The translations under genes were made by a program, and so were the position numbers. DNA of 27,501 nucleotides from a virus, in the IMG/VR virus record IMGVR_UViG_3300031867_000457, positions 1 through 27,501 of that record, one strand, 5' to 3'. Below, in pieces: positions 2,326-24,961 of this stretch; positions within the stretch are counted from its first letter, which is position 1, and each line of letters starts with the position of its first letter. Under the pieces are notes generated by a model. It saw only the letters and a list, made by a program, of their open reading frames with translations. It was not told where the DNA came from and did no database searches.

Positions 2326-4911
2326 TTAGTTTGTATAACCTGTTACATCTTGAATTGTTATTAAGTCAACCTTTGTTGGCTGTGTACTTGTAATGTCATA
2401 ATCGTATATCTTGTTTACTATATATAACTGATTATCGATTTTAACAAATTTATTGAACTTAAAGTTTATCCAATCCAACGGTGTTAGTTTGATATAACAT
2501 GTTACCTTTTTGTTTTGTATGTTATAACGTTCGTCCAAATAATTCTTCCAATATAATTCATATATTGAATTTTTACCACTATAGTTGTTATTGTATGTGA
2601 AGTTCGTACTTGGAACATTAAATGTACATATATTGTTATTATACACTACGTCAAGAAATGGATATGTAAAAGAAGTTACATAATCACTTTGTACAAAGGT
2701 GTAGAAATATGTGTTATTTAATCGTTGAAACGTTGAATCATCACTAATCTTTGGAATTACCAAATGAAGGCTGTTTTCTCTGTTGAAATTTTTCAAACCA
2801 TTATGAAAATATAACGTTCCAAATATGTCAACCTCTTTATTATCTTTATCCCTGTTTGCAACATAAATCTCATTTGGAAAACTGTAGAATATTTTGTGCC
2901 TATTTAATGTAAGCCAAGATAATACAGATTCCGTATAAACAATCGGCGATTTGATTTCTTTGAAAAGATTAGTTGTTTCATCATTGAAGTTATAATTGGT
3001 TGTAAGACGATAATCACCAAAATTCACACCGTATTTAGTTTTATAGGATTTACCGATTTCAACCTCAGAATCTTTATAATTAAACAAAACATATTTACTA
3101 TCAAAAGCAATAGGTTTAATTACAAAATCTCTTGAAAAATCAACTTTGTTTGTCCAATCAACAACTTCATAATTTTCAAAATATTTATTGCTTGATTGAA
3201 AATAAATCTTCTTACCTAAATCATCTACAGATATTTTTATATGATATGACTTACAATATTTAAGAATTTCATCAAATAAGTTATATTCATTGTTCCACAA
3301 ATCGTTAAAGGTAAAGTATGAATTGCTTTTAGTTCTATTGTTAATTTGTGCTGCAAGTTGGCTTGTTGTTGAACTAAAGTAAAAGGTGTTTAAATGTGTT
3401 CCATATCCACCATAAGGTTGTCCATTCAAAATAAATGGTAACGTATTATTTTCCCACTTTGCACTACATCTAAATTTTACATATTGTTTTGCATCGTGAT
3501 ACATTCCTGTAAAATTTATTACAGGGTTAATATCAAAATTGTATTGGGCATTCTCATCTGTTGCTTTCTTAAAGCGAAATATACTGTCATAATTTCCTGA
3601 AACTGTATAATTTTCACTACACATAAGAATTTTATATGTTAGTAATATATTATCACTTTCATTCAGCACTTCTACTGTGATATTTAACGCATTCGTATCC
3701 CCCCAATATAAATCTTTCCATTCTGATGCTGCTTCATTCGGATGTATTCGTAATCTGCCATCTAATGCCCAACTAAATTGAACATCATACTTATTTGAAA
3801 TCCTAAACTGTGCAGGTTTTGTTCTAAAACCGTTTATAATAAGTGGAAATGATTCTGTTGTTTCATATACACCCCAATAATCTGTTTGTGTTGATGCACC
3901 ATAACCATCTTTACTCCATCTATATGTATCACTAAAAATATTGTAATAATTTGTTGCTGAATCTGTACTGCTTTCTGTGTTTAACTTTTTAAGCATATAA
4001 ACAAGGTTATACCAATAAGGATTATTGGTGTTAAACCAATCTGAATCCAACACAAAAGAATAACCTGTTAAATCTTCCGCTTTCTTTTGGAACATTTGAA
4101 ACAACTTATTCCAATAAACAAACGGTAATTGGTTATAACTACGAAATTCACCCATTCCCCTTGGTGTTATTCCGTTTGAGATAACCGTATCAGGTTCTAT
4201 ACCTAAATCATCTGTAAAACTATCACCCAATAATTCAACAAGTGTTCTTGATTGGTTTGAAGATGCTTGTACTGTTTTATAATCAAACCCACTTGAAAAT
4301 GCAGTATTAGGTGCAAATCCAATAATATCGTATAACCTGTAATTTATATTTTGAATAGGCATTTCTTGTTCTGGATATTTATATTTTGTTTCCAATTCTG
4401 AATGTGTTTGCCCTTGAGAACTCCATGATGAAGCCACTAAATTTTTATTTATATATTCTTCAACATAATGTCTTCCGTTGATTATATATTTTTGTTCAGG
4501 ATATGTGGTATCAAATGTAATTTTTTGCATTTCTAATAACACCCTACCAAGTTCACCAAACAAAGTGATTTCATAAGTACCTTTACCATCTTTTTGTTTT
4601 ATTTCATTCATCTTGGCGTAACCTGTCATAAGAACGTTATCACCATCTTGCAGGCGAAAATCCATCTTCAATGTCGGGTTGAAATATATACCTGTGTTCT
4701 TATCTGTTCCATCTGTCACAATCAGTCTATCTGTTTTATAGATATTACCAAACAGATTATTGTTTTTCTGTGTAAAAGGAATAGATACCGTTTTACTCCA
4801 ATCATTTATAATGGTAGTAGGATTAGATAAATCTTCAAACTGCTTGGTAATCGCAAATTGTACGGATTTATCCAATTCTACTTCTTGATTTTCTATGAAT
4901 AGTCGTGTCAT
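2326..4911 (-). CDS. large virion tail-tip/baseplate-type structural protein (861 aa), function unassigned
   Basis: Track ORF with ATG start, 2-nt gap to the upstream gene. N/Y/F/T-rich beta-type composition typical of tail hub or host-recognition proteins. Lies between a Dit-position gene and the tape-measure-like gene. Confidence 0.45.
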   Translation of the reverse strand: MTRLFIENQEVELDKSVQFAITKQFEDLSNPTTIINDWSKTVSIPFTQKNNNLFGNIYKTDRLIVTDGTDKNTGIYFNPTLKMDFRLQDGDNVLMTGYAKMNEIKQKDGKGTYEITLFGELGRVLLEMQKITFDTTYPEQKYIINGRHYVEEYINKNLVASSWSSQGQTHSELETKYKYPEQEMPIQNINYRLYDIIGFAPNTAFSSGFDYKTVQASSNQSRTLVELLGDSFTDDLGIEPDTVISNGITPRGMGEFRSYNQLPFVYWNKLFQMFQKKAEDLTGYSFVLDSDWFNTNNPYWYNLVYMLKKLNTESSTDSATNYYNIFSDTYRWSKDGYGASTQTDYWGVYETTESFPLIINGFRTKPAQFRISNKYDVQFSWALDGRLRIHPNEAASEWKDLYWGDTNALNITVEVLNESDNILLTYKILMCSENYTVSGNYDSIFRFKKATDENAQYNFDINPVINFTGMYHDAKQYVKFRCSAKWENNTLPFILNGQPYGGYGTHLNTFYFSSTTSQLAAQINNRTKSNSYFTFNDLWNNEYNLFDEILKYCKSYHIKISVDDLGKKIYFQSSNKYFENYEVVDWTNKVDFSRDFVIKPIAFDSKYVLFNYKDSEVEIGKSYKTKYGVNFGDYRLTTNYNFNDETTNLFKEIKSPIVYTESVLSWLTLNRHKIFYSFPNEIYVANRDKDNKEVDIFGTLYFHNGLKNFNRENSLHLVIPKISDDSTFQRLNNTYFYTFVQSDYVTSFTYPFLDVVYNNNICTFNVPSTNFTYNNNYSGKNSIYELYWKNYLDERYNIQNKKVTCYIKLTPLDWINFKFNKFVKIDNQLYIVNKIYDYDITSTQPTKVDLITIQDVTGYTN

Positions 4912-6872: not shown

Positions 6873-7169
6873 TTAATTTCTCCTTTGTAAACGTTTTATT
6901 TGTTTCTCCTGTTCCTTAGCCTTTATTACCTCATAAGATACAATATAGAACAATGTAGATATATCAAATTCCATTGCTGAAGTAAAGGTTTCATTGGTTA
7001 CTTCACAGAATTTTAAAATGAATGGGATAATACCAAATCCACTGATTCCTTCACTACCTTTATCATGTTCTTCTTGGTTTCCTTCGGCAGATTCAACTTC
7101 TTTATTCTCTTGATTGAATAAGATTGGAAAATTTGAATGAATTTTTCCAATTGTCTTTTGAAAAAAAAA
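6873..7169 (-). CDS. -1 frame extension of the 7013..7630 gene (predicted frameshift fusion of about 253 aa, lambda G/GT-like)
   Basis: Hand translation: after the T9 run the -1 frame reads QKTIGKIHSNFPILFNQENKEVESAEGNQEEHDKGSEGISGFGIIPFILKFCEVTNETFTSAMEFDISTLFYIVSYEVIKAKEQEKQIKRLQRRN with no stop for 95 codons. It ends at TAA 6873-6875, one nt before the ATG (6869-6871) of the next gene. Confidence 0.55.
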   Translation of the reverse strand, partial: FFFQKTIGKIHSNFPILFNQENKEVESAEGNQEEHDKGSEGISGFGIIPFILKFCEVTNETFTSAMEFDISTLFYIVSYEVIKAKEQEKQIKRLQRRN

Positions 7170-7630
7170 GCAGTAGAATTTACAACAGGAATCGGTAACT
7201 GTTCAATGTCATTTATTACTTCAAGCATATCATAACCATCATTATATTTGTGCCCTTCAGGAATAATAAATACTGATAACATTTTAGCCATATTTCCCGA
7301 TTTGCTGTGATTGGTAAAATCTACATATTGTGCCGTTGATATGTTACCAAGCAAACTATCAATGAAATATTTCTTTCCGTTTAATTCTATCTTCTTAGGC
7401 GGTATGCCATCAGGAATAGGTTCTTTCATGAACTCTAATTTTGCAATTTCTTTCTTGAACTCACTTATAGGTAAATTTGTAACATCATTTCCTAAAATCA
7501 GTTCAGCAATAGCAATAGTTCTTTCAGTTTCATCTTCAATCTTTATCAATTCCTGTAATCTTTCAAACTGATAAAGTGTTACGTTATACCAATTATATTT
7601 CTTTATATTTTTCATAACATTTTCATTCAT
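7013..7630 (-). CDS. putative tail assembly chaperone-like protein, zero-frame product (205 aa)
   Basis: Track ORF. The ATG at 7628-7630 lies inside motif copy c1, and a second in-frame ATG sits 5 codons later (MKNIKKYN). Contains an in-frame GCU UUU UUU UUC run at 7160-7171. Chaperone call rests on the frameshift architecture, not on sequence similarity. Confidence 0.45.
   Translation of the reverse strand: MNENVMKNIKKYNWYNVTLYQFERLQELIKIEDETERTIAIAELILGNDVTNLPISEFKKEIAKLEFMKEPIPDGIPPKKIELNGKKYFIDSLLGNISTAQYVDFTNHSKSGNMAKMLSVFIIPEGHKYNDGYDMLEVINDIEQLPIPVVNSTAFFFKRQLEKFIQIFQSYSIKRIKKLNLPKETKKNMIKVVKESVDLVLSHSF
7123..7169 (-). promoter_or_regulatory. putative -1 programmed ribosomal frameshift signal
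   Basis: Plus strand has A9 at 7161-7169, which is U9 in the mRNA. In-frame heptamers are U UUU UUU (7169-7163) and U UUU UUC (7166-7160). An 8-nt spacer (aaaagaca) follows. Then comes a perfect 9-bp stem AUUGGAAAA (7151-7143) / UUUUCCAAU (7131-7123) with an 11-nt loop. Confidence 0.55.
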
Positions 7631-7661
7631 ATATTCATAAAAATAGAAAAATCAAACACTT
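7622..7661 (-). promoter_or_regulatory. copy c1 of the 40-bp bipartite motif GTGTTTGA-N16-AATATATG
   Basis: Minus strand reads AGTGTTTGA-TTTTTCTATTTTTATG-AATATATGAATGAA. It fills the 32-nt gap between the terL stop (7663) and the next gene, and the ATG of box B is that gene's annotated start. Confidence 0.5.
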
Positions 7662-7662
7662 C

Positions 7663-8898
7663 TTATCTTATTGCATAAGTGCCTTTATTTATACAATCCA
7701 ATGCAAGTAACATAGCAATAATACAGTCATCATGATAGCCATTGGCGGCATTGTATGTGCGTTTGCCATTTGCATTAGTTTTCATTTCGTACATATCCAA
7801 TTGTACCTTTAATGTTGGATTATCCAATATAGTTACCTGTTTGTTTTGCATATAAACCTGAAACTGATTTATAATTCTTTCTTTACTTTCATTGGTTGTA
7901 GTAAATTTAAGCAACATAACAGGTAAACCATTTGCCTTAATCGCTTTATCCAATAAGCCATAGAACACCGCGCCAATGCTGTTTGTTTCTACCTGCACCT
8001 TTAACGGTTTGTAACGCTTGATAAGTTCAATAATATAATCAATTGTTTGTGTTTCATCCTTATCGCTAAAATGATACAAACCTATCATTTGTCTTTCACC
8101 GTTAAAGATTGCAATGGCTGTTTCATCTTGATGGTTTCCTGTACCCCAATCAATCCCGAAGTAACAGTTACCATTGGTATTGAAGTTATTGTTTATAATA
8201 CCTGAATAATTTCCAAATACGCCACCTTCATTATCAAGAAACTCGCCTAAAAATTCTGTTTTGAATTTAGATGGCGGTATCTGTTTACGATATTCTTCTA
8301 ACTTTTCTTTGGGTAATAATGCAGAAGTGTCAAATTCACTCCAATTGTAGGATAAAATTGAATTTCCGTTTTCCAATCCCATTGTGTAGTATTTATAAAA
8401 GAATCCTGTCTTATGGTTTGGTGTGCTACATATAATTACAGGGGCTTGAGAAACATTAACCCATGCAAGAATTTCGTAAAATATGTTATCCGATATATAA
8501 GCCCCTTCATCTATACACAAAATACCTGTAACTGTGTAACCTCTTAAACCGTCACCTTGTTCAGCCGATTTAAATAATATTTCGCTGCCATTACACAACT
8601 TGATATACAACTGCAAATCATTGTGTTTGTAATATATCTTTGTAGGCTGTATAACCGTTTTACAGGCATTGAACACCTTTCTTGCTTGTTCCAATGTAGG
8701 TGAAACAAAGATTGAAGTTGTTTTTGAATTGTTTATGGCTGTTTGTAAAATGATTGATTGAAGTAAAATGGATTTTCCAACCTGCCGCTTTGATTTTATA
8801 ACATGTATATAACCGCGCCAATTCGCCTTAACATTATTTATTACCTGTGTCTGCCAAGGATAGAATTTAAGATTAGATTTTACTTTAACAACATCCAT
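7663..8898 (-). CDS. terL: terminase large subunit (411 aa)
   Basis: Walker A-like KSKRQVGKS, Walker B ILCIDEGAY, CSTP coupling-type motif, then an RNaseH-like nuclease half (GIDWGTG ... VETNS ... GYHDDCIIA). Follows a small HTH/acidic protein. Confidence 0.9.
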   Translation of the reverse strand: MDVVKVKSNLKFYPWQTQVINNVKANWRGYIHVIKSKRQVGKSILLQSIILQTAINNSKTTSIFVSPTLEQARKVFNACKTVIQPTKIYYKHNDLQLYIKLCNGSEILFKSAEQGDGLRGYTVTGILCIDEGAYISDNIFYEILAWVNVSQAPVIICSTPNHKTGFFYKYYTMGLENGNSILSYNWSEFDTSALLPKEKLEEYRKQIPPSKFKTEFLGEFLDNEGGVFGNYSGIINNNFNTNGNCYFGIDWGTGNHQDETAIAIFNGERQMIGLYHFSDKDETQTIDYIIELIKRYKPLKVQVETNSIGAVFYGLLDKAIKANGLPVMLLKFTTTNESKERIINQFQVYMQNKQVTILDNPTLKVQLDMYEMKTNANGKRTYNAANGYHDDCIIAMLLALDCINKGTYAIR

Positions 8899-8900
8899 AA

Positions 8901-9311
8901 TTATTCATCAGTTTCCTCAGTTTCGCTATCTTCATTAGTTTCACCAATATCAAATACCAAATTGATTTCCGAATTACCTTCAATCTTTACTTTCTCGGTA
9001 TAGCCACCTGCAAGTTTGTTCTGTGTGTCGATAGCCTTAATTGCATTACGCCTGTCACCATCATTTATAGAATCTGATATAATACTATCAAGCCTTTCCA
9101 TATTCATAGCAATAAGTGCATCTTTTGTTGCATCAGAACGCATAAAGGCTATAGTATCACAAACATATAATTCTGATGTTTTGGGACTAACACCCCATTC
9201 ATCGGCTAAACGTTGAACAAGGTGACTAAATCTTTCACCCTTTGCAATCGCTTCCATTATCAGGATTCTCTTGGCTTCCTGACTTATCGTTTTTATTTCC
9301 GTCTTTTTCAT
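8901..9311 (-). CDS. terS: putative terminase small subunit (136 aa)
   Basis: Directly upstream of terL with a 2-nt gap. N-terminal HTH-like segment (GERFSHLVQRLADEWGVSPKTSELYV) and an acidic tail (ETNEDSETEETDE). Overlaps the previous ORF by 77 nt, so the true start may be an internal Met at 9257. Confidence 0.5.
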   Translation of the reverse strand: MKKTEIKTISQEAKRILIMEAIAKGERFSHLVQRLADEWGVSPKTSELYVCDTIAFMRSDATKDALIAMNMERLDSIISDSINDGDRRNAIKAIDTQNKLAGGYTEKVKIEGNSEINLVFDIGETNEDSETEETDE

Positions 9312-9564
9312 TTTCTTGTTCCTTCTTTAACTTGTTATCAACAATCTTTTGTTGCATTTCAAAGTATGGTATAGCCAACTTTGATATAAAATCTAATGCA
9401 CATTTGGGACAATGGTTGTTCTTGTACGTAATTCCCAATTCTGCACCTATTGTAATTAAATCTTCTATCTGTGCATTTGTAAGGCTTCTTATATATCCTG
9501 CCTTACTTGCCGTAGTTAGATAGGTTTCGTATTTCTTTAACTTGTTGTAAGTAGTTATCTTCAT
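9235..9564 (-). CDS. hypothetical protein (109 aa)
   Basis: Track ORF with ATG start and 4-nt overlap with the upstream gene. Contains HCPKC and a K/E/N-rich tail. No family recognised. Confidence 0.5.
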   Translation of the reverse strand: MKITTYNKLKKYETYLTTASKAGYIRSLTNAQIEDLITIGAELGITYKNNHCPKCALDFISKLAIPYFEMQQKIVDNKLKKEQENEKDGNKNDKSGSQENPDNGSDCKG

Positions 9565-9905
9565 TTGTCTATAAATTTAGAATAAATTGTTTGGATTATT
9601 TTTGTTATAATATCTTCTACCAATAATATAGTATTTTTAATCAAACCACTAAAAGTTGCTAATAAGCACACAACCACTATATATTTTAGAGTGAAAGCAC
9701 CTGTAAAGAACAGATAGATTAAGCCACACCACCAAATGGTACACAGACTACAATCAAATGGTTTAAGCCTATAATCACAACCTGACATCCTACCCTTGGT
9801 TAATAACCACTTTAAACTGCTTTTCAACGTATCAATTGCCCCTGATATGTCAATCACAAAAACACATATCAAAGCAATCATCAATAGGTTTATTATTGTT
9901 TCCAT
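9561..9905 (-). CDS. small polytopic membrane protein with Cys cluster (114 aa)
   Basis: Three hydrophobic segments (LLMIALICVFVIDISGAI; TIWWCGLIYLFFTGAF; IVVVCLLATFSGLI) and C-x9-C-x2-C (GCDYRLKPFDCSLC). Overlaps the 3' end of the sigma region-4-like ORF by 56 nt. Confidence 0.55.
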   Translation of the reverse strand: METIINLLMIALICVFVIDISGAIDTLKSSLKWLLTKGRMSGCDYRLKPFDCSLCTIWWCGLIYLFFTGAFTLKYIVVVCLLATFSGLIKNTILLVEDIITKIIQTIYSKFIDK

Positions 9906-10323
9906 ATTTTTCAGTATATATTTTTCTTATTTTCTTTCTTGCATTATAAACAAGCACCTTTAACGTTGCAACATTTTTAGGGGCTGTACCTTCAAATGAT
10001 TTTATACATTCGGAATAACTTTTTGAACATTCTACTGCGATTAAAAGGTTACGTTCAGCAGGGGTAATTTCATTGTTAATAATGTCCCATAACCTGATAA
10101 ATTCAACTGATTTGTTATAATCAAAATAAGCATCCATTTCAAAAACCTCATGATTATCATCCTTAAACAATCGTATTTCTTCCTTTTTATCAAGATAAAT
10201 ATTGTTCATTGTTTCAATATATTCCTGTACTTCGGCTTTAGCAACTTCATATTTTGTTTTCTTCATCGTAGGTTGCCCAAAAGATGTCATCTTTTGTTTG
10301 GAAGGTTTCGTTGTATTTTCCAT
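9850..10323 (-). CDS. sigma-70/ECF region-4-like protein (157 aa; may start at the internal Met at 10266)
   Basis: ITPAERNLLIAVECSKSYSECIKSFEGTAPKNVATLKVLVYNARKKIRKIY matches the region 4.2 pattern Lp..eR.v..l.....s..EIa..lg.s..tVk..l.rAr.kLr. No region-2-like part is present in this ORF. Confidence 0.5.
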   Translation of the reverse strand: MENTTKPSKQKMTSFGQPTMKKTKYEVAKAEVQEYIETMNNIYLDKKEEIRLFKDDNHEVFEMDAYFDYNKSVEFIRLWDIINNEITPAERNLLIAVECSKSYSECIKSFEGTAPKNVATLKVLVYNARKKIRKIYTEKYGNNNKPIDDCFDMCFCD

Positions 10324-10636
10324 ATTTTTTATAGATTTTACTTGTTTTACTAATCAATTGTTGGTGAATTATACCTGTAACATATCCACTAATTGCAAAT
10401 CTTCCTTGAGAATATAATTCATTCCATCTTTTCTGAGGAACTTCACAAATCATAAGGTATATTTCCTGAATCTTATCCTGTACTTCCTCATTTTCCATTG
10501 TTTTCTTAAGTAAATAGGTAGTGTACCATTCTACAATGTGAATATCATAAATCCATTGTATAATATCATCCTTCTTATCTGATTTAAGCGGTAAGTCAGC
10601 AGAAAGAACCTTAAATTCATAGTAGTTATTTTTCAT
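10247..10636 (-). CDS. sigma-70/ECF region-2-like protein (129 aa)
   Basis: EEVQDKIQEIYLMICE ... FAISGYVTGIIHQQLISKTSKIYKKY resembles region 2.2-2.4 (aeDlvQe.fl.l ... f..WL..Ia.N..id..Rk..r). The ORF stops before any region-4-like part and overlaps the next ORF by 77 nt in a different frame. Confidence 0.4.
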   Translation of the reverse strand: MKNNYYEFKVLSADLPLKSDKKDDIIQWIYDIHIVEWYTTYLLKKTMENEEVQDKIQEIYLMICEVPQKRWNELYSQGRFAISGYVTGIIHQQLISKTSKIYKKYGKYNETFQTKDDIFWATYDEENKI

Positions 10637-10767
10637 ATTCCTAATATTTTTTTATAAATTTCACTTCTATCATCTGTTACTTTATAAAGGTTGTATTTAG
10701 CACCATCTGCTGTTAGTTTAGCAATATTGGCTGTAATAGTATCTCTTAATTGCTTATCCCTAACCAT
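10633..10767 (-). CDS. small hypothetical protein (44 aa)
   Basis: Not in track. ATG at 10765-10767: MVRDKQLRDTITANIAKLTADGAKYNLYKVTDDRSEIYKKILGI. Its TGA overlaps the next gene's ATG as ATGA, suggesting translational coupling. Confidence 0.3.
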   Translation of the reverse strand: MVRDKQLRDTITANIAKLTADGAKYNLYKVTDDRSEIYKKILGI

Positions 10768-10840
10768 CTTTGTAATAGCTTTAGCCCATCCTTTGCTTCC
10801 CTTTTGATTGTTTACTAATATGCAATTTTCTTCATATATT

Positions 10841-11694: not shown

Positions 11695-13218
11695 TTAATT
11701 ATTGTTAAGGTTATCATTTTTATTATTATGGTAATTTTTCTTTGCTTGTTGAACCTGATACATCGTACAGCCTAAAACCTTCATGTTTTTCCTAATGGAT
11801 AGTTCAGGATTGTAACCTTCTATGATTGTTTTCTTTGTACGTGTTTTTGGTTTTTCAGGCGTTATATTATTTTCCTTGCAGAATTGGTATAAACGACTTA
11901 TTGATACTGTATAACCTGCATTCTGCATCGTAAGTTGGTTTTCTTTGATTGTAAGAGTAGAATCAAACATACACCCTATAGTTTCATTCGTGATTTCCTT
12001 TCTTGCTGCGGCTACGGCTTGATGCTTATCTTCTACTGTCGGATTGATGATAAAGTTTGGTTTTTTATCTGATACCATTGATTTGATTTCCTCTTCGCTT
12101 GTAAGGAATGCAGCCTTTACTTTTGCCTTTAAGACTTCTACCGTTAAAACTTCATCCATATTATCAAAGTGTTTGTATCTGTCTATGTAAAGGTTGTAAA
12201 GCAGTTCATCAGGTGTTGTATCATCCTTCATCAATCTTCTAATAGATGCACGAATGTATAATTTCTTTCTTCTTTGATTACCGTCTTCTACCTTATTTGC
12301 TATGTAGAAGAGTTGATAATAATCTTCGGTAGTTGTTATATAATATTTATCCCCAAAATCTACAGCAGTTTTTGTAAAGTATCTTAATCCTTTAGCGTGC
12401 CATTTCCTAACTACAAACTCATACGGTAAACTTTCCATATCAGTAACCAATTCCTCTGTAAACGCTATTTTATTCGTTTTAACAGGTTTCTCTTCTATAA
12501 CCTGATATTCCTCTTCTACATCAGGTATAATTGGTTCTACGTGAAAATCATCCTTACTGTAGATGATGTGTGAATTATAAGTATCATCCGAATTGCTACC
12601 GTTCATATACTGACTAAATGAACATCCACACATATCTTGCATTTCTTCTTTAGTATCGGCTACTATTGAATCATATAAGGCAAAGGTTGTTTCTCTAAAC
12701 TCATCAACCGATAATACGCTGTCAAATACATAGACTAATCTGAATCTTCTGCTTATAACACCGTTCTTATCTTTTCTGTCGCTGTAAGAGTAATAAGCGC
12801 ATGTAGGTTTATTTGATAAGCAAGAAATGTAATCTGTAATAGATTGGTAGTGTGTGTAATCAACATCTACAAAGATTGTCTGACTACCTGCGAAAAACTC
12901 ATCCGATTTAAAGTTTAATTTGAAATAGCCTTTATTTAAACCCCTTCTGTAGATTGGATAGGTTTTAGTCCACCTACCACCTGTTCTAATCCAATATTGT
13001 TTTTCTGTGTCAAAGTGGAATAAGTTGCAGAATGAATAACCGTTAATAGCATATTCAAGAAATTCATCTACTGTTACCGTTTCTTCTTTAAACGCCATCT
13101 TCGGATGTCCTATTTCTTTAGCCGTTATAGAAGATAAACACATTTTAGCAGTTTCTTTGTTATCGTAACCTTCCCTACTAATAGAAGTTCTAAATGTAAA
13201 TTCTAAATCCTGTTTCAT
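11695..13218 (-). CDS. putative replication initiation / primase-polymerase-like protein (507 aa from ATG)
   Basis: The track start at 13227 is TTG; the first ATG is at 13216-13218 (MKQDLEF) with TTTG-N6 upstream. TIFVDVDY (hhhDxD) followed by RFRLVYVF is reminiscent of AEP/VirE_N-type primase cores. C-terminal third is basic and HTH-like. Confidence 0.35.
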   Translation of the reverse strand: MKQDLEFTFRTSISREGYDNKETAKMCLSSITAKEIGHPKMAFKEETVTVDEFLEYAINGYSFCNLFHFDTEKQYWIRTGGRWTKTYPIYRRGLNKGYFKLNFKSDEFFAGSQTIFVDVDYTHYQSITDYISCLSNKPTCAYYSYSDRKDKNGVISRRFRLVYVFDSVLSVDEFRETTFALYDSIVADTKEEMQDMCGCSFSQYMNGSNSDDTYNSHIIYSKDDFHVEPIIPDVEEEYQVIEEKPVKTNKIAFTEELVTDMESLPYEFVVRKWHAKGLRYFTKTAVDFGDKYYITTTEDYYQLFYIANKVEDGNQRRKKLYIRASIRRLMKDDTTPDELLYNLYIDRYKHFDNMDEVLTVEVLKAKVKAAFLTSEEEIKSMVSDKKPNFIINPTVEDKHQAVAAARKEITNETIGCMFDSTLTIKENQLTMQNAGYTVSISRLYQFCKENNITPEKPKTRTKKTIIEGYNPELSIRKNMKVLGCTMYQVQQAKKNYHNNKNDNLNNN

Positions 13219-13239
13219 AGTTTGCAAATGATTTTAAGA

Positions 13240-14126: not shown

Positions 14127-14378
14127 GTGAAAAATATCCATATAAAAAAGGTAAATACGATTTTTCTTGACTTAATGATTAAACAGCACTTTAACCTGTT
14201 TCCTGATAGGTTGATGTACACTTATTCCTAAATATCAAATTAAACTTAATCTGATTGTAATAATATCAATATATCTTCCTTATGGTTAATACAAAGATAA
14301 GTAAAAGAATTGATATTTACAATAGGTTTAAGATATTTGTAATAGGTTATTAATTATTCTCTAATCTCTAATCCATAT

Positions 14379-14418
14379 TACATACATATATTCATAGAAG
14401 AAGAATTTTCAAACACTT
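14379..14418 (-). promoter_or_regulatory. copy c2 of the 40-bp bipartite motif
   Basis: Minus strand reads AAGTGTTTGA-AAATTCTTCTTCTATG-AATATATGTATGTA. No ORF follows directly. 37/40 identical to the reverse complement of c5. Confidence 0.5.
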
Positions 14419-14824: not shown

Positions 14825-14974
14825 TAAAATGGCTGTTCAAGGGTAGTTTTGAAGGGAAATGAGTAAATTTGGTTGTAAAGTTGGTAATTAGGTTGTAGAA
14901 TTGGTATTAGGTTATTATAGGTATTATCTCTATATTTCTTTCTATTCTCTCTTATATTATTATTCAAGTAATTC

Positions 14975-15017
14975 TACATACATATATTATTAGAAAAATA
15001 AAATTATTCAAACACCT
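14975..15017 (-). promoter_or_regulatory. copy c3 of the bipartite motif (19-nt spacer variant)
   Basis: Minus strand reads AGGTGTTTGA-ATAATTTTATTTTTCTAAT-AATATATGTATGTA. Its sense direction points into the C-rich, non-coding-looking stretch 14773-14967. Confidence 0.45.
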
Positions 15018-17051: not shown

Positions 17052-17091
17052 AGGTGTTTGAAATTTCTTCTTTTATGAATATATGTATGTA
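17052..17091 (+). promoter_or_regulatory. copy c5 of the bipartite motif, the only copy in plus orientation
   Basis: Plus strand reads AGGTGTTTGA-AATTTCTTCTTTTATG-AATATATGTATGTA. Its sense direction runs antisense into the 89-aa gene. Confidence 0.5.
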
Positions 17092-17108
17092 CAATGAATA
17101 GGGAATAA

Positions 17109-17989: not shown

Positions 17990-18418
17990 TTATCTGATAT
18001 TTATGTATATTTTTTCTCCATTATCCCATGCTGTTTTAATTACACTCATCAATTTTTTCATTGATTTCTTACTATTTATAACCTTACCTTTTACTTTGTT
18101 TTCTCCTACCAATATACAGCCTTTTGTATCTTCTTTATTGTTACCTGCGTGGATTCTAATATCTTTGAACATTGGTACATCTAATAATTCAGGTAATATC
18201 TTTTTGAAGTGTGGGGAATAACTTAATATTACCTCATATCTTCCTTCAGGTATGGCTGTTTCTCCATATATCTTATCTTCAATTGTATCTAATGTTCTTA
18301 CCTTATCTTCTAAAGTATCACATAGATATTCACCATTTATATATAGGTTTCCAATGGTATAATCTTCTTTCTTATATAATCTATCTATTCTTATATCCAT
18401 ATATCCATTTACATACAT
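17990..18418 (-). CDS. candidate endolysin / cell-wall enzyme with His...Gly-Cys motif (142 aa)
   Basis: IRIHAGNNKEDTKGCILVGENK resembles the H-x(n)-G-C signature of YkuD-type L,D-peptidoglycan enzymes. It is the last gene of a holin-like / spanin-like / this-gene cluster. The ATG lies inside motif c4, with an alternative Met 6 codons later (MDIRIDR). Confidence 0.35.
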   Translation of the reverse strand: MYVNGYMDIRIDRLYKKEDYTIGNLYINGEYLCDTLEDKVRTLDTIEDKIYGETAIPEGRYEVILSYSPHFKKILPELLDVPMFKDIRIHAGNNKEDTKGCILVGENKVKGKVINSKKSMKKLMSVIKTAWDNGEKIYINIR

Positions 18419-18449
18419 ATATTCACAGAAAAAGAAAAATCAAACACCT
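18410..18449 (-). promoter_or_regulatory. copy c4 of the bipartite motif
   Basis: Minus strand reads AGGTGTTTGA-TTTTTCTTTTTCTGTG-AATATATGTATGTA. Box A overlaps the last codons and stop of the upstream gene (..G V stop = GGTGTTTGA). Box B contains the start codon of the downstream gene. Confidence 0.5.
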
Positions 18450-22200: not shown

Positions 22201-22790
22201 TCTGTTTCACCACCCTCGGCGTGTGATGCTGTTTCAGATGCTTTTGTCAAGTTGCCTTCAGCGTGTGTAACAAATCCCGAAGCCTGTGTTAAGTTGCCTT
22301 CAGCGTGGCAACCATAATCACCGCTTGCTGTTGTGCTATATCCTTCTGCGTGAGAACCTAATCCTGTAGCAGTATTTTCAACAACCTGTCCACCATCAGC
22401 AGCATCTTGTTTGTATTTCTCAGCAAAACCGCCATTTGTATCACCGTTGAACTTGTAACCTTTAGCAGAAATAGTATCGTTAGCAATATCGATGTTTTCG
22501 CCTGCTGTCAACGCGCCTTGTTTGTTTGATAGTTCGGAGTTTATTTTGTTTGAACTCCAAGTTTTATCGGTTCTTACAGAAGTATCATCTATAATGTGTC
22601 CTAATTCCTCAGCCAACGGTAATATTTCTAAAAGAATAGAATAAACATCATCAAAATCTTCCTCACTACCACCAAGTTCCCTGTATATATTCATTGAAAG
22701 CGAATAAATACTTTCAAAAGGTATAGGTTCTGTACCTAACCTTGCACTAATTTCCTGTGCTATTTCGTAATTTGAATTAAAATCTGCCAT
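19233..22790 (-). CDS. tail fibre / host-adhesion protein built from 14-residue H-x-E-G repeats (1185 aa)
   Basis: About 35-40 copies of (S/A)H(A/S/T)EG spaced 14 residues apart, for example SHAEGGETEAKANY-SHAEGYQTKAIGRQ-SHSEGGYTKARGLR-AHAEG. Three modules each end in EHAQG..N.SH...HSIG.G...NA.E.MQ.G..Y..G.G.Y.G. GKQ..LTAG.NI.I.N.TISA linkers join them. A fibre-collar motif is present: LPATGEVNTIYFVP...YDEYMYINNAWEKIGS. Confidence 0.75.
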   Translation of the reverse strand: MADFNSNYEIAQEISARLGTEPIPFESIYSLSMNIYRELGGSEEDFDDVYSILLEILPLAEELGHIIDDTSVRTDKTWSSNKINSELSNKQGALTAGENIDIANDTISAKGYKFNGDTNGGFAEKYKQDAADGGQVVENTATGLGSHAEGYSTTASGDYGCHAEGNLTQASGFVTHAEGNLTKASETASHAEGGETEAKANYSHAEGYQTKAIGRQSHSEGGYTKARGLRAHAEGEGASADDLCAVGDDSHTEGLFTQTQNYAEHAQGAANISHKTASNAATTWQGDGNHTLHSIGNGRYTDTQSNAVEVMQNADVYIKGVGNYDGVHIKSEQGYETVKTLQQVISGKQDVLTAGQNIVITNNTISAVIDAGFSVEVVQTLPATGEVNTIYFVPKAGGANPDVYDEYMYINNAWEKIGSTEVDLSNYYNKTEVDTLLGGKQATLTAGNNITINGTTISANDTTYSAGDNIDITNNAIKAIGYRYNTSNGAFAEGDRDIDENGTIRYKSTATGIMAHAEGINTSATGRASHAEGNGTTAQGSTAHSEGLSTIASGNNSHAEGSNTNAEGIASHVEGAESTASGNVSHAEGRSTKANSTAYASHTEGYNTETGGNYGSVLSNPKTAGGSTDAGAYAHAEGNATIAYGVAAHSEGKTTFAKGNYSHTEGNGTRAIGAHSHAEGGVTTVAAAGANGHAEGKNTTVNGYASHAEGDTCETGGNYSSNTTNPKTPNSRTTTTGDYSHAEGSATIAYGIASHSEGQQTFAKGNCSHAEGINSVASGARAHAEGSGTKADGINSHAEGGSTEAKGTNSHTEGRQAVANGYASHAEGDGSETGGNYASETTNPKTADSKTDAGDYAHAEGNATIAYGVNSHSEGKLTFAKGTNSHAEGGSTIANGNNTHVEGSRTIANGNQSHAEGSETITNGLNSHAEGRFTKTLCNAEHAQGSYNVSHYITDSFDGNLGNTVHSIGIGTADDARKNAVEVMQSGQVYLIGIGNYDGVHIKGETGAPSGLQTLQETIRGKQDALGTGDNIDITNNTISALGYGYDSGCGSITNGDGCSAEGAYSHAEGCLTITQASATHSHAEGFATETNNINEHAQGRYNVSHSVDVSEVHHEGNTVVSVGIGEDGERKNAFEIMQNGDIYVYGLGYYNGTETKYDNPDIMTLQDILKKIADAVGVDIGALF
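19971..20999 (-). repeat. tandem triplication (about 315-360 nt units) inside the fibre gene
   Basis: Three units (about aa 598-702, 703-820, 821-940) each read YASH.EG....ETGGNY.S...NPKT.......G.Y.HAEG.ATIAYG...HSEG..TFAKG..SH.EG. At DNA level they share near-identical blocks such as ccacctgtttc...caccctc.gcgtgtga.gcatatccatt. Confidence 0.7.
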
Positions 22791-22795
22791 ATTCC

Positions 22796-23350
22796 TTAAA
22801 TTGTTTCACCGTTAACTTTATGTAATATTTCTTGCAACAGTAGTGCTAATTGTGCATCCTGTGCTTTGTATTTATTTATTTCTTCTATTAGTTGTTTAAT
22901 CAACTTATCTTTATCATCTTCATAATCATAAGAATCCATTTCACACAATCCTATCGGACTATCAACAGTTATTTCAACTTCTGCATAAACGCCTGCAAGA
23001 TAATCCATGAATTTCTGTTCAAATGGTGTGTAGATTACGTTTTCAGGAATATCTGCTTCCCCTGTTTGATTAAGAATGTTGATTACCGACTGAATAACAT
23101 TAACACCATCTGTATAGATAGAGTTGTTATTTCTTTTATCCTGCAATAGTCTATCACCATAATACAGAATGAATGAATAAGTGGCAAAGTTACCGTTATA
23201 GGTAATGTTTTGTAATCCGATATTGAAACTGCCATAATTTGTTTCTGCTTTGTTCCAATTCTCATAAACATCACCATTATATACACTCATTACAGGCTGT
23301 TGTGAAAGTGCTATTTCAGATATTTTATTTATCAATTCATTTACATTCAT
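22796..23350 (-). CDS. virion neck/tail-proximal protein, unassigned (184 aa)
   Basis: Track ORF with ATG start. Lies between a connector-like gene and the fibre gene. AAGGAG lies 8 nt upstream of the ATG, one of the few SD-like sites here. Confidence 0.4.
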   Translation of the reverse strand: MNVNELINKISEIALSQQPVMSVYNGDVYENWNKAETNYGSFNIGLQNITYNGNFATYSFILYYGDRLLQDKRNNNSIYTDGVNVIQSVINILNQTGEADIPENVIYTPFEQKFMDYLAGVYAEVEITVDSPIGLCEMDSYDYEDDKDKLIKQLIEEINKYKAQDAQLALLLQEILHKVNGETI

Positions 23351-23878: not shown

Positions 23879-24961
23879 TTATTCCCCTTCTTCTATTTTG
23901 AACGGTACGAATCCAATACTGTTATCAAGATTGAAAATCTTATCAAACGTTCTTGTTAAATCGTCTTGTATTGGTTTAACCGTTGTTTTATTGTATAATT
24001 TAAATGCTTCGTCAAATTCTTGTTTGTTAAATCCTGTACCCTCTAATGAATAACCAAACAACTGTGGAATAGCACGGAAAGCAACAAATATTTCTTTATA
24101 GGTATCGGTTCTTAAACTTTCATATTTTTTATCAAAGTTATCATCTTGGATTCTTTCAACTGTTACCCCATTATCCTTGCTATCGTTGAACGCCACCAAA
24201 AATTTACCTGCATTGTCTGCACCGCTGAATTTATCTTTAACTTTCTTTTCAATTTCCGCCTGTACATCTTCTGTTGGTTGTCCGTTGTTGAAGTTAATAA
24301 TAAAGTTACCACTAAAGTTGTTAAGTATGCTGTTCAAATGGAACTTACTTATTTCTGTACTTGTTTCAATTGCTGATAGTGCACCATTGTAACGTGGTAT
24401 CGGATAAACACCTCTTGAAATATGTCCTTTAAAATAGAAAACTGATGTTCCTTGTTTCTTTTCCGAATTAAATATATCGTAGGTAAGATAATCGTTTGCA
24501 TGCTTTACCCAATCTTCAGAATAATAGATTTTATCCCCTTCTTTGCTTCTACGTACATTACGGAAATCCAACCAATAAATTTCATTGATTTCACCCATTT
24601 TATTGTTGATAATCTGTAGTGCAAATCCACCAAATACAAGATAATCAACAATGATTTTCTTTATAACATCTTCAAGTGTTTCACCATCATTATTTGCTTT
24701 ATCCTTTAGTTTTTGTACCGTTGGATTTTCATTATAAATTATACCATTACCACCCGCATAATCTGCTGTGCCATTTATGATTGATTGTAATATTGCACTT
24801 CTAAGGTATAATTCCCACAGGTAGTTTGGAAATTTATTGTCATTACCATAGTTAAGATATGGTTTTCCGTAATTTTCTTTTTCAACAAATGTGGGTATCA
24901 CCTTAACAGCCGAATCATAAATGCTAAAATTCATTCTATCAATCTGTTTATTTTTAGCCAT
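23879..24961 (-). CDS. portal protein (360 aa)
   Basis: YGNDNKFPNYLWELYLRSAILQSIINGTADYAGGNG near the N-terminus. KFSGADNAGKFLVAFNDSKDNGVTVERIQDDNFDKKYESLRTDTYKEIFVAFRAIPQLFG matches the portal hallmark f.G..NaGk..v......v..i....d..y..l.......i...f..P..l.g. Confidence 0.65.
   Translation of the reverse strand: MAKNKQIDRMNFSIYDSAVKVIPTFVEKENYGKPYLNYGNDNKFPNYLWELYLRSAILQSIINGTADYAGGNGIIYNENPTVQKLKDKANNDGETLEDVIKKIIVDYLVFGGFALQIINNKMGEINEIYWLDFRNVRRSKEGDKIYYSEDWVKHANDYLTYDIFNSEKKQGTSVFYFKGHISRGVYPIPRYNGALSAIETSTEISKFHLNSILNNFSGNFIINFNNGQPTEDVQAEIEKKVKDKFSGADNAGKFLVAFNDSKDNGVTVERIQDDNFDKKYESLRTDTYKEIFVAFRAIPQLFGYSLEGTGFNKQEFDEAFKLYNKTTVKPIQDDLTRTFDKIFNLDNSIGFVPFKIEEGE

Follow-up and report, generated by a model that had tools for sequence, protein, structure and literature searches.

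A probable naturally split sigma factor of the extracytoplasmic function type in an uncultured gut or rumen phage

Sigma factors made of two subunits are uncommon, and studies cover only a few of them: SigO-RsoA (YvrI-YvrHa), reportedly a two-subunit sigma factor, gp55/gp33 of phage T4, gp33/gp34 of phage SPO1, and, very recently, Sig7-Sig8 of the element Tn916. [quoted passage not shown] Sig7-Sig8 is likewise a split sigma factor; both of its subunits associate with RNA polymerase, and the pair drives the main transcription programme of Tn916 itself (bioRxiv 10.64898/2026.10.01.756105). The late factors of T4 and SPO1 are also two-subunit (bioRxiv 10.64898/2026.10.01.756105). This report concerns a locus in a 27,501-bp virus record (IMG/VR record IMGVR_UViG_3300031867_000457, positions 1 to 27,501, linear and 93% complete according to CheckV), the whole of which is called the window. 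Two overlapping open reading frames (ORFs) of this locus, ORF1 and ORF2, probably encode the halves of a phage sigma factor of the ECF type (group 4) that is highly divergent and naturally split, and a third, ORF3, encodes a conserved small membrane protein.

Two-subunit sigma factors are a known kind, to which the family of ORF1 and ORF2 adds. To judge from sequence comparison, it is a new and unannotated family of such factors, and no published description of this phage sigma family was found.

Sigma homology of the two halves

The minus strand carries nearly all genes of the window, including the three considered here: ORF1 (10247..10636; 129 amino acids, aa), ORF2 (9850..10323; 157 aa from ATG 10323), and ORF3 (9561..9905; 114 aa). 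ORF1 comprises a sigma-2-like half (regions 2.1-2.4) followed by a C-terminal tail that carries an invariant F-W and ends in acidic residues, and ORF2 comprises a linker helix followed by a sigma-4-like half. An earlier note, written from the letters of the window, had located the three ORFs correctly, and the peptide strings that it quoted are present; its reading of ORF1 as region-2-like and of ORF2 as carrying a region-4-like helix-turn-helix (HTH) has since been strengthened by matches across the wider superfamily, by profile-profile comparison, and by predicted structure.

Homology of ORF1 to sigma region 2 emerges from its relatives. A profile of the ORF1 family, searched against 1.84 billion representatives with a cut-off of E <= 1e-3, gathered a superfamily of at least 229 clusters, most of them 100-190 aa long. 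When 129 members of this superfamily were each scanned singly against Pfam and NCBIfam, Sigma70_r2 (PF04542) was the commonest Pfam match (19 of the 129, best E 8.7e-5), and the NCBIfam sigma70-ECF model TIGR02937 was matched by 10 members (best E 3e-10), as were many other sigma models. For profile-profile comparison with hhalign, a reference alignment of 23 genuine ECF sigma factors was drawn from 12 Clostridia genomes; these are other genomes of the same class, used because the metagenome-assembled genome (MAG) that holds the related locus L005 yielded no host sigma genes. Against this reference the ORF1 superfamily aligned at 74% (P 2.8e-5) in the register of region 2 (D..QE.fL ... f..W/Y....i), and reversed-alignment controls gave P values of 0.12-0.83.

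The predicted structure of ORF1 (AlphaFold2 model, mean predicted local distance difference test score, pLDDT, 86) agrees with this assignment. Three of its six Foldseek matches in the PDB are sigma region-2 structures, none of them significant. Among viral models in BFVD, it matches phage proteins of 160-230 aa with high probability and template modelling (TM) scores of 0.50-0.57, including proteins named "sigma-70 region 2", "RpoE sigma24 homolog", and "Sigma70-ECF". HMMER profiles of the ORF1 and ORF2 families retrieved nothing significant from the PDB sequences.

The evidence for ORF2 is of the same kind. The ORF2 family aligned with the ECF reference at 80% (P 1.4e-5) over region 4 (L-P..R..i.L......s..EIA......tvk.r..RAR..L). 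There was no direct Pfam match, and the commonest NCBIfam models for the family were all RNA polymerase sigma factors (5 of 46 members, best E 4e-4). In the AlphaFold2 model (pLDDT 82), a long N-terminal helix (residues 5-35) precedes the sigma-4 helices, and the best-fitting PDB match by Foldseek is 2h27_A, region 4 of Escherichia coli sigmaE on -35 DNA (TM score 0.60, root-mean-square deviation 2.7 over 69 columns).

The two halves are tied together by relatives in which both domains form one protein. Seven such one-piece relatives, 170-211 aa long, occur among the representatives listed, with a C-terminal extension of the pattern L..(E/D)R..L..Y(I/L)...(HTH)...I..I(R/K). As a group they align with the ECF reference at 96.5% (P 1e-9) over 140 columns, from region 2 through region 4. 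The ORF1 family aligns with their N-terminal half at 99.4% (P 1e-21), and the ORF2 family with their C-terminal domain at 91.6% (P 8e-7); hhalign detected the latter relationship, whereas the ORF2 profile run by HMMER did not. In two distant phage loci, L077 and L078, the gene that follows the sigma-2-like gene matches the ECF profile directly over region 4 (E 4.5e-10 and 1.7e-5). Because the recurrent weak matches, the profile-profile alignments, the structural comparisons, and these distant split relatives are four independent lines of evidence and all agree, ORF1 is assigned as a homologue of sigma region 2 and ORF2 as a homologue of sigma region 4, both of the ECF type, by sequence profiles and modelled folds.

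Separate cistrons and the probable joint action of their products

By the evidence of their homologues, the three ORFs are genuine genes rather than chance frames, since homologues of ORF1 and ORF2 are numerous and of similar length and homologues of ORF3 occur at related loci. ORF1 has 90 database homologues of 85-145 aa, mostly 125-136 aa, down to about 47% identity, and the identical protein is encoded on 20 contigs. ORF2 evolves faster than ORF1; a single-sequence search found three homologues, and a profile built from proteins at syntenic loci found 47 matches, 46 of which are 122-148 aa long. Homologues of ORF3 are present at every related locus that extends far enough downstream. Searches of IMG/VR with the single proteins gave no match, and a profile search of the same database found two loci.

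The frame of ORF2 is +1 with respect to that of ORF1, and the two ORFs overlap by 77 nt, or by 20 nt (10247..10266, minus strand) if translation begins at ATG 10266, within the last codons of ORF1; both figures agree with those in the earlier note. A start at 10266 would give a protein of 138 aa, and a third candidate, ATG 10290, one of 146 aa. The start of ORF2 is probably one of these two, because its database twin (P0091) is called from 10290, a relative with 89% identity (P0092) has Thr in place of Met 10266, and more distant relatives align starting at Met 10266. At its other end, ORF2 overlaps ORF3 by 56 nt. In the window clade these 56 nt (9850-9905, minus strand), which overlap the start of ORF3, encode a Cys-rich C-terminal extension of ORF2 (…KPIDDCFDMCFCD) that is lacking in more distant relatives.

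The division into two genes is conserved. The two halves form separate cistrons at each of the 16 related loci whose junction could be read, and the junctions are of three types. In the commonest, ORF2 starts in the +1 frame at an ATG that precedes the end of ORF1 by 14-20 nt. In the subclade of L057, L060, and L070, ORF1 ends in TAA, and a spacer of 15-21 nt with a Shine-Dalgarno-like AGGGAG leads to an ATG in the ORF1 frame. In L005, the spacer contains AAAGGAA and the frame relation is a third one. Every ORF2 starts at a conserved ATG of its own and has M-K-K or M-E at the N-terminus, and the junctions share no conserved slippery site. The cut falls in the linker between sigma-2 and sigma-4. 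The division recurs in L077 and L078, which share only about 25-35% identity with ORF1 in their sigma-2 domains. In a tree of sigma-2 domains, the one-piece forms are scattered within one half of the superfamily and none falls in the half that contains the window, at a resolution too poor to give the direction of change (fusion or fission) or the number of events.

The superfamily also includes three sigma-2-only relatives (L071, L072, and L073; about 2940-3420 in each) that have no adjoining sigma-4 gene. They are 144-181 aa long and lie on more GC-rich contigs, with an integrase-like gene nearby in L072 and a radical-SAM-like gene following in L073 (a 60-kb contig); these proteins may be orphan sigma-2 domains in integrated elements.

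If the two proteins act as their homologues do, ORF1 would contact the host RNA polymerase at the beta-prime clamp helices, recognising the -10 element and opening it, and ORF2, with its sigma-4 HTH, would attach to the beta-flap tip and recognise the -35 element. The tail of ORF1 and the N-terminal helix of ORF2 would together replace the covalent linker between sigma-2 and sigma-4. The overlap of the two cistrons (20-44 nt) suggests translational coupling, which would yield the two proteins in roughly equal amounts. The sigma pair lies where the replication genes (11695-13227) meet the packaging genes, and its position upstream of the terminase genes is conserved among related loci. Because the pair ends the replication module and stands directly upstream of the packaging genes, it would most likely redirect the host RNA polymerase to the late promoters of the phage.

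Several observations weigh against a functional split sigma factor. ORF1 and ORF2 fall far below the thresholds of curated sigma models: neither window protein directly matches any sigma model, and direct scans of ORF1, ORF2, and ORF3 against Pfam and PHROGs gave nothing usable. The close ORF1 family taken alone aligns with the ECF reference weakly, at only 6% (P 6e-3), over region 2, and the Foldseek E-values against the PDB are not significant for either protein. The HTH of ORF2 (residues 84-99) has a near-invariant F-N-G-x-G...K-N turn that is about 5-6 residues longer than that of ECF sigma-4, which may alter its reading of the -35 element relative to canonical sigma-4. Finally, motif examination of the window and of a complete relative (G014) identified no promoter for the split sigma factor.

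The alternative that best withstands the evidence is that the two proteins are derived from sigma factors and do not act jointly as one. ORF2, for example, could be a stand-alone HTH activator of late genes encoded upstream of the small terminase gene (terS), like RinA, ArpU, and LtrC, which are said to be small HTH late activators encoded just upstream of terS in phages of Gram-positive bacteria and which activate the packaging and late operon. ORF1, in turn, might bind RNA polymerase as a sigma-2-only protein, either in the manner of gp55 or as a competitor of the host sigma factor. The position just upstream of the terminase genes, the atypical HTH of ORF2, and the existence of the three sigma-2-only relatives without an adjacent sigma-4 gene would all suit such separate roles. 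In the family of the window, however, the two genes are always adjacent and usually overlapping, the one-piece relatives show the two domains working as one protein elsewhere, and neither RinA nor ArpU is among the top NCBIfam families matched by the ORF2 family. Separate action is thus unlikely, though it deserves more weight than either of the two explanations that would make ORF1 and ORF2 a single polypeptide.

The first of these, a programmed +1 or -2 frameshift or a stop readthrough that fuses ORF1 to ORF2 in a fraction of translation events, draws on the fact that most relatives have ORF2 in the +1 frame overlapping the end of ORF1. It is very unlikely given the three junction types and the distant split phages: the junction has no conserved slippery sequence, the frame relation varies by clade (+1, +2, or in frame behind TAA and a spacer), and ORF2 has its own conserved start and N-terminus. 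The second, that an indel introduced by sequencing or assembly has disrupted a single ECF sigma gene of the ordinary kind, as overlapping ORFs in different frames and the one-piece relatives might suggest, can be set aside with near certainty in view of the identical ORF1 protein on 20 contigs, the half-length of its 90 homologues, the 16 of 16 split loci (one junction type having a stop, a spacer, and a fresh ATG), and the same division in the much more distant L077 and L078. The view in the earlier note that the halves are separate polypeptides is accordingly upheld.

The downstream membrane protein, flanking genes, and the five-copy motif

ORF3 lies directly downstream of the sigma genes, adjoining or overlapping them in the window and its relatives, and is putatively co-transcribed with them. 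Its hydropathy profile shows a hydrophobic segment at the N-terminus and a double one at about residues 56-92, with a positive loop of some 30 residues between them and a tail of about 20 residues after them, an arrangement compatible with the three transmembrane segments proposed in the earlier note, where the overlap with the 3' end of ORF2 was also recognised. The cysteine motif proposed there, C-x9-C-x2-C, was miscounted: the spacing is C43-x8-C52-x2-C55. The family is well conserved, with an invariant D-C-S-L-C-x3-W where the second hydrophobic segment begins; of the Cys and Trp residues, however, only C52, C55, and W59 never vary, and C43 lacks conservation. Eight of 10 family members match phrog_19792, annotated "membrane protein", over their full length (best E 8e-4), and none of the 10 matches Pfam. 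A resemblance to DUF1360, suggested by the C-x2-C-x3-W pattern, found no support in hmmscan.

The gene order around ORF3 is also conserved. An ORF3-like protein follows the split sigma genes in L077 and L078 and a one-piece sigma gene in L076, and is itself followed in all three by a C-x2-C protein of about 115 aa. The counterpart in the window is a 109-aa protein with C-x2-C and a charged tail (9235..9564, minus strand), which neighbours ORF3 and has no family match in Pfam or PHROGs; those in the relatives occupy the same position (L076, 3907-4275; L077, 3830-4171; L078, 1617-1973). Even in very distant phages, what comes after the ORF3-like protein is always such a protein, about 110-120 aa long, with a single C-x2-C and a low-complexity, charged tail. 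Together with the sigma genes, the genes for these two proteins make up a four-gene module, which is conserved upstream of the terminase genes. Unrelated ORFs interrupt it in places: a GIY-YIG endonuclease gene lies between the sigma-4 and membrane-protein genes in L004 (3250-3687), and a 50-aa ORF in L002/L003 (3232-3384); this interval looks like an insertion site for homing endonucleases.

The earlier note compared the place of ORF3 with that of an anti-sigma factor in ECF operons. As such, ORF3 would be a membrane-anchored protein that holds the split sigma factor inactive until a signal arrives. Its position immediately downstream of the sigma genes is indeed conserved, in close relatives, in L077 and L078, and even beside the one-piece sigma gene of L076. 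The C-x2-C is invariant, the predicted cytoplasmic loop is net positive, and one subclade reads H-x3-C-x2-C, the pattern of the zinc motif in the ZAS subgroup of class I anti-sigma factors. Against this, ORF3 has no recognisable anti-sigma domain: the 10 members gave no Pfam match, and the only family matched is phrog_19792, which groups membrane proteins without an assigned function. An N-terminal cytoplasmic anti-sigma domain comprises about 80-90 residues, and the soluble parts of ORF3 comprise only about 30 and about 20, leaving no room for a canonical domain. The His of the motif is found only in L004, L005, and L056/L057/L070 and is Lys elsewhere, including in the window; C43 is not conserved; there are about three hydrophobic segments instead of the usual single pass; and ORF2 and ORF3 can be separated by the unrelated ORFs mentioned above. 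Moreover, the conserved order is weak and non-independent evidence, because all these phages share one genome layout, and ORF3 could equally well be a holin or serve some other function in the membrane. An anti-sigma role for ORF3 is therefore doubtful.

More speculative still is the idea that the four-gene module (sigma-2, sigma-4, C-x2-C membrane protein, and C-x2-C small protein) serves the phage as a self-contained switch for timing. In such a switch, ORF3, possibly through zinc or thiol chemistry at C-x2-C, would sequester one sigma half at the membrane, and the two-piece construction of the sigma factor would allow holoenzyme assembly to be gated. If true, this anti-sigma mechanism would be of a new kind, acting on a two-piece sigma factor.

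The remaining flanking genes place the module within the phage genome. Upstream of ORF1 is a 44-aa ORF (10633..10767, minus strand) whose stop overlaps the ORF1 start (ATGA), and upstream of that ORF an intergenic gap of 73 nt (10768-10840) may hold the promoter of the sigma operon. Downstream of the module, a 136-aa protein (8901..9311, minus strand) with weak family matches only in Pfam and PHROGs is a candidate small terminase by its position directly upstream of the large terminase gene (7663..8898, minus strand; Pfam Terminase_6N and Terminase_6C), which begins the packaging and structural genes. In cultured phages, blastn and tblastn found no match to the ORFs, to a one-piece relative, or to a distant sigma-4 half, and the large terminase has relatives there of only about 25% identity. 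On both counts the lineage is uncultured, and the source is an uncultured gut or rumen phage.

A motif occurs five times in the window, at 7624-7659 (copy c1, minus strand, between the terminase gene and the next gene), 14371-14416, 14971-15005, 17054-17099, and 18410-18449. In gene orientation it reads (A/G)GTGTTTGA-N13-16-T(G/A)AATATATG(T/A)ATGTA and ends a few bases before an ATG or overlaps it; the first ATG of the gene at 7013-7630 lies inside a copy, and the real start of that gene may be an ATG 15 nt downstream (7615). The motif contains TTTG-N21-TAtgTaTG (a spacer of about 21 nt). The consensus of primary-sigma promoters in Bacteroidota is TTTG...TAnnTTTG, and the motif resembles a host promoter of this type, by sequence one mismatch away, although the exact consensus is not enriched in the window. 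As a promoter it would give leaderless transcripts, because it ends at or just before the ATG. Use of Shine-Dalgarno sequences in the window is weak (7 of 28 starts versus a 16% background), which fits a Bacteroidota-type host. The earlier note proposed that the products of the three ORFs read this motif. The motif is absent from G014, the complete 31.7-kb relative that is the record of L057 and carries the split sigma genes; because it is host-promoter-like and missing there, nothing links it to the split sigma factor, and that proposal is not supported.

No equivalent multi-copy promoter-like motif was found in G014 either; the only repeats detected there are shared ribosome-binding and start contexts and a triple tandem repeat. 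The latter (about 22762-22975), with units of about 70-77 nt (GTTCATTTCAGAA ... ACCTCCCTTTTG), lies in a non-coding stretch between ORFs ending at 22635 and starting at 24130, and could be a set of iterons or operators. The relative L005 (CADBBS010000003.1, 29,759 bp) is whole-phage-sized and was binned in a rumen MAG labelled "uncultured Lachnospiraceae". Its subclade uses clear Shine-Dalgarno sequences and the window phage does not; together with the binning, this difference means that the family may span host phyla, or that the binning is wrong.

Comparison with known systems

The family of ORF1 and ORF2 offers many natural ECF-type sigma factors that appear to be cut in the linker, one-piece relatives with which to compare them, and a conserved, probably coupled gene pair. 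It should help in studying how the two sigma domains come together on RNA polymerase when no covalent linker joins them, and in designing genetic switches based on split sigma factors. It also provides a predicted function for two unannotated gene families that are common in uncultured gut and rumen phages, and marks the probable late-gene regulator of this phage group.

The resemblance to RinA, ArpU, and LtrC is one of size, motif, and location: ORF2 is a small HTH protein encoded upstream of the terminase genes. These activators are single proteins without a sigma-2 partner, in contrast to the ORF1/ORF2 pair, and no such model is among the NCBIfam matches of the ORF2 family. With one-piece group 4 ECF sigma factors, including those encoded by phages, ORF1 and ORF2 share a composition of sigma-2 and sigma-4 only, and profile comparison indicates homology; they differ in being cut in the linker, in falling below Pfam and NCBIfam thresholds, and in having a longer turn in the sigma-4 HTH.

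As in SigO-RsoA, region-2 and region-4 functions would be carried by separate polypeptides of neighbouring genes, and by analogy the two proteins are expected to make one promoter-recognition factor. Unlike the chromosomal SigO-RsoA, ORF1 and ORF2 are encoded by a phage, in the order sigma-2 then sigma-4 and in overlapping cistrons, and their superfamily includes one-piece relatives. No model of SigO, RsoA, Sig7, or Sig8 was among the Pfam and NCBIfam matches, which were not accompanied by a direct pairwise comparison. Like Sig7-Sig8, the pair would be a two-subunit sigma factor encoded by a mobile element. Tn916, unlike the phage, is conjugative, occurs in Bacillota, and carries a different sequence family, and its sigma pair is supported by experiment, whereas ORF1 and ORF2 are known from sequence.

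A functional analogy may exist with gp55 plus gp33 of T4 and gp34 plus gp33 of SPO1; in each pair, two proteins of a phage late factor stand in for sigma-2 and sigma-4 on the host RNA polymerase. T4 gp33, however, has neither homology to sigma-4 nor DNA-binding activity, and it depends on the sliding clamp gp45; no clamp gene was noticed in the window, in which no search was aimed at such genes. ORF2, unlike T4 gp33, is by profile and model a genuine sigma-4 homologue with an HTH.

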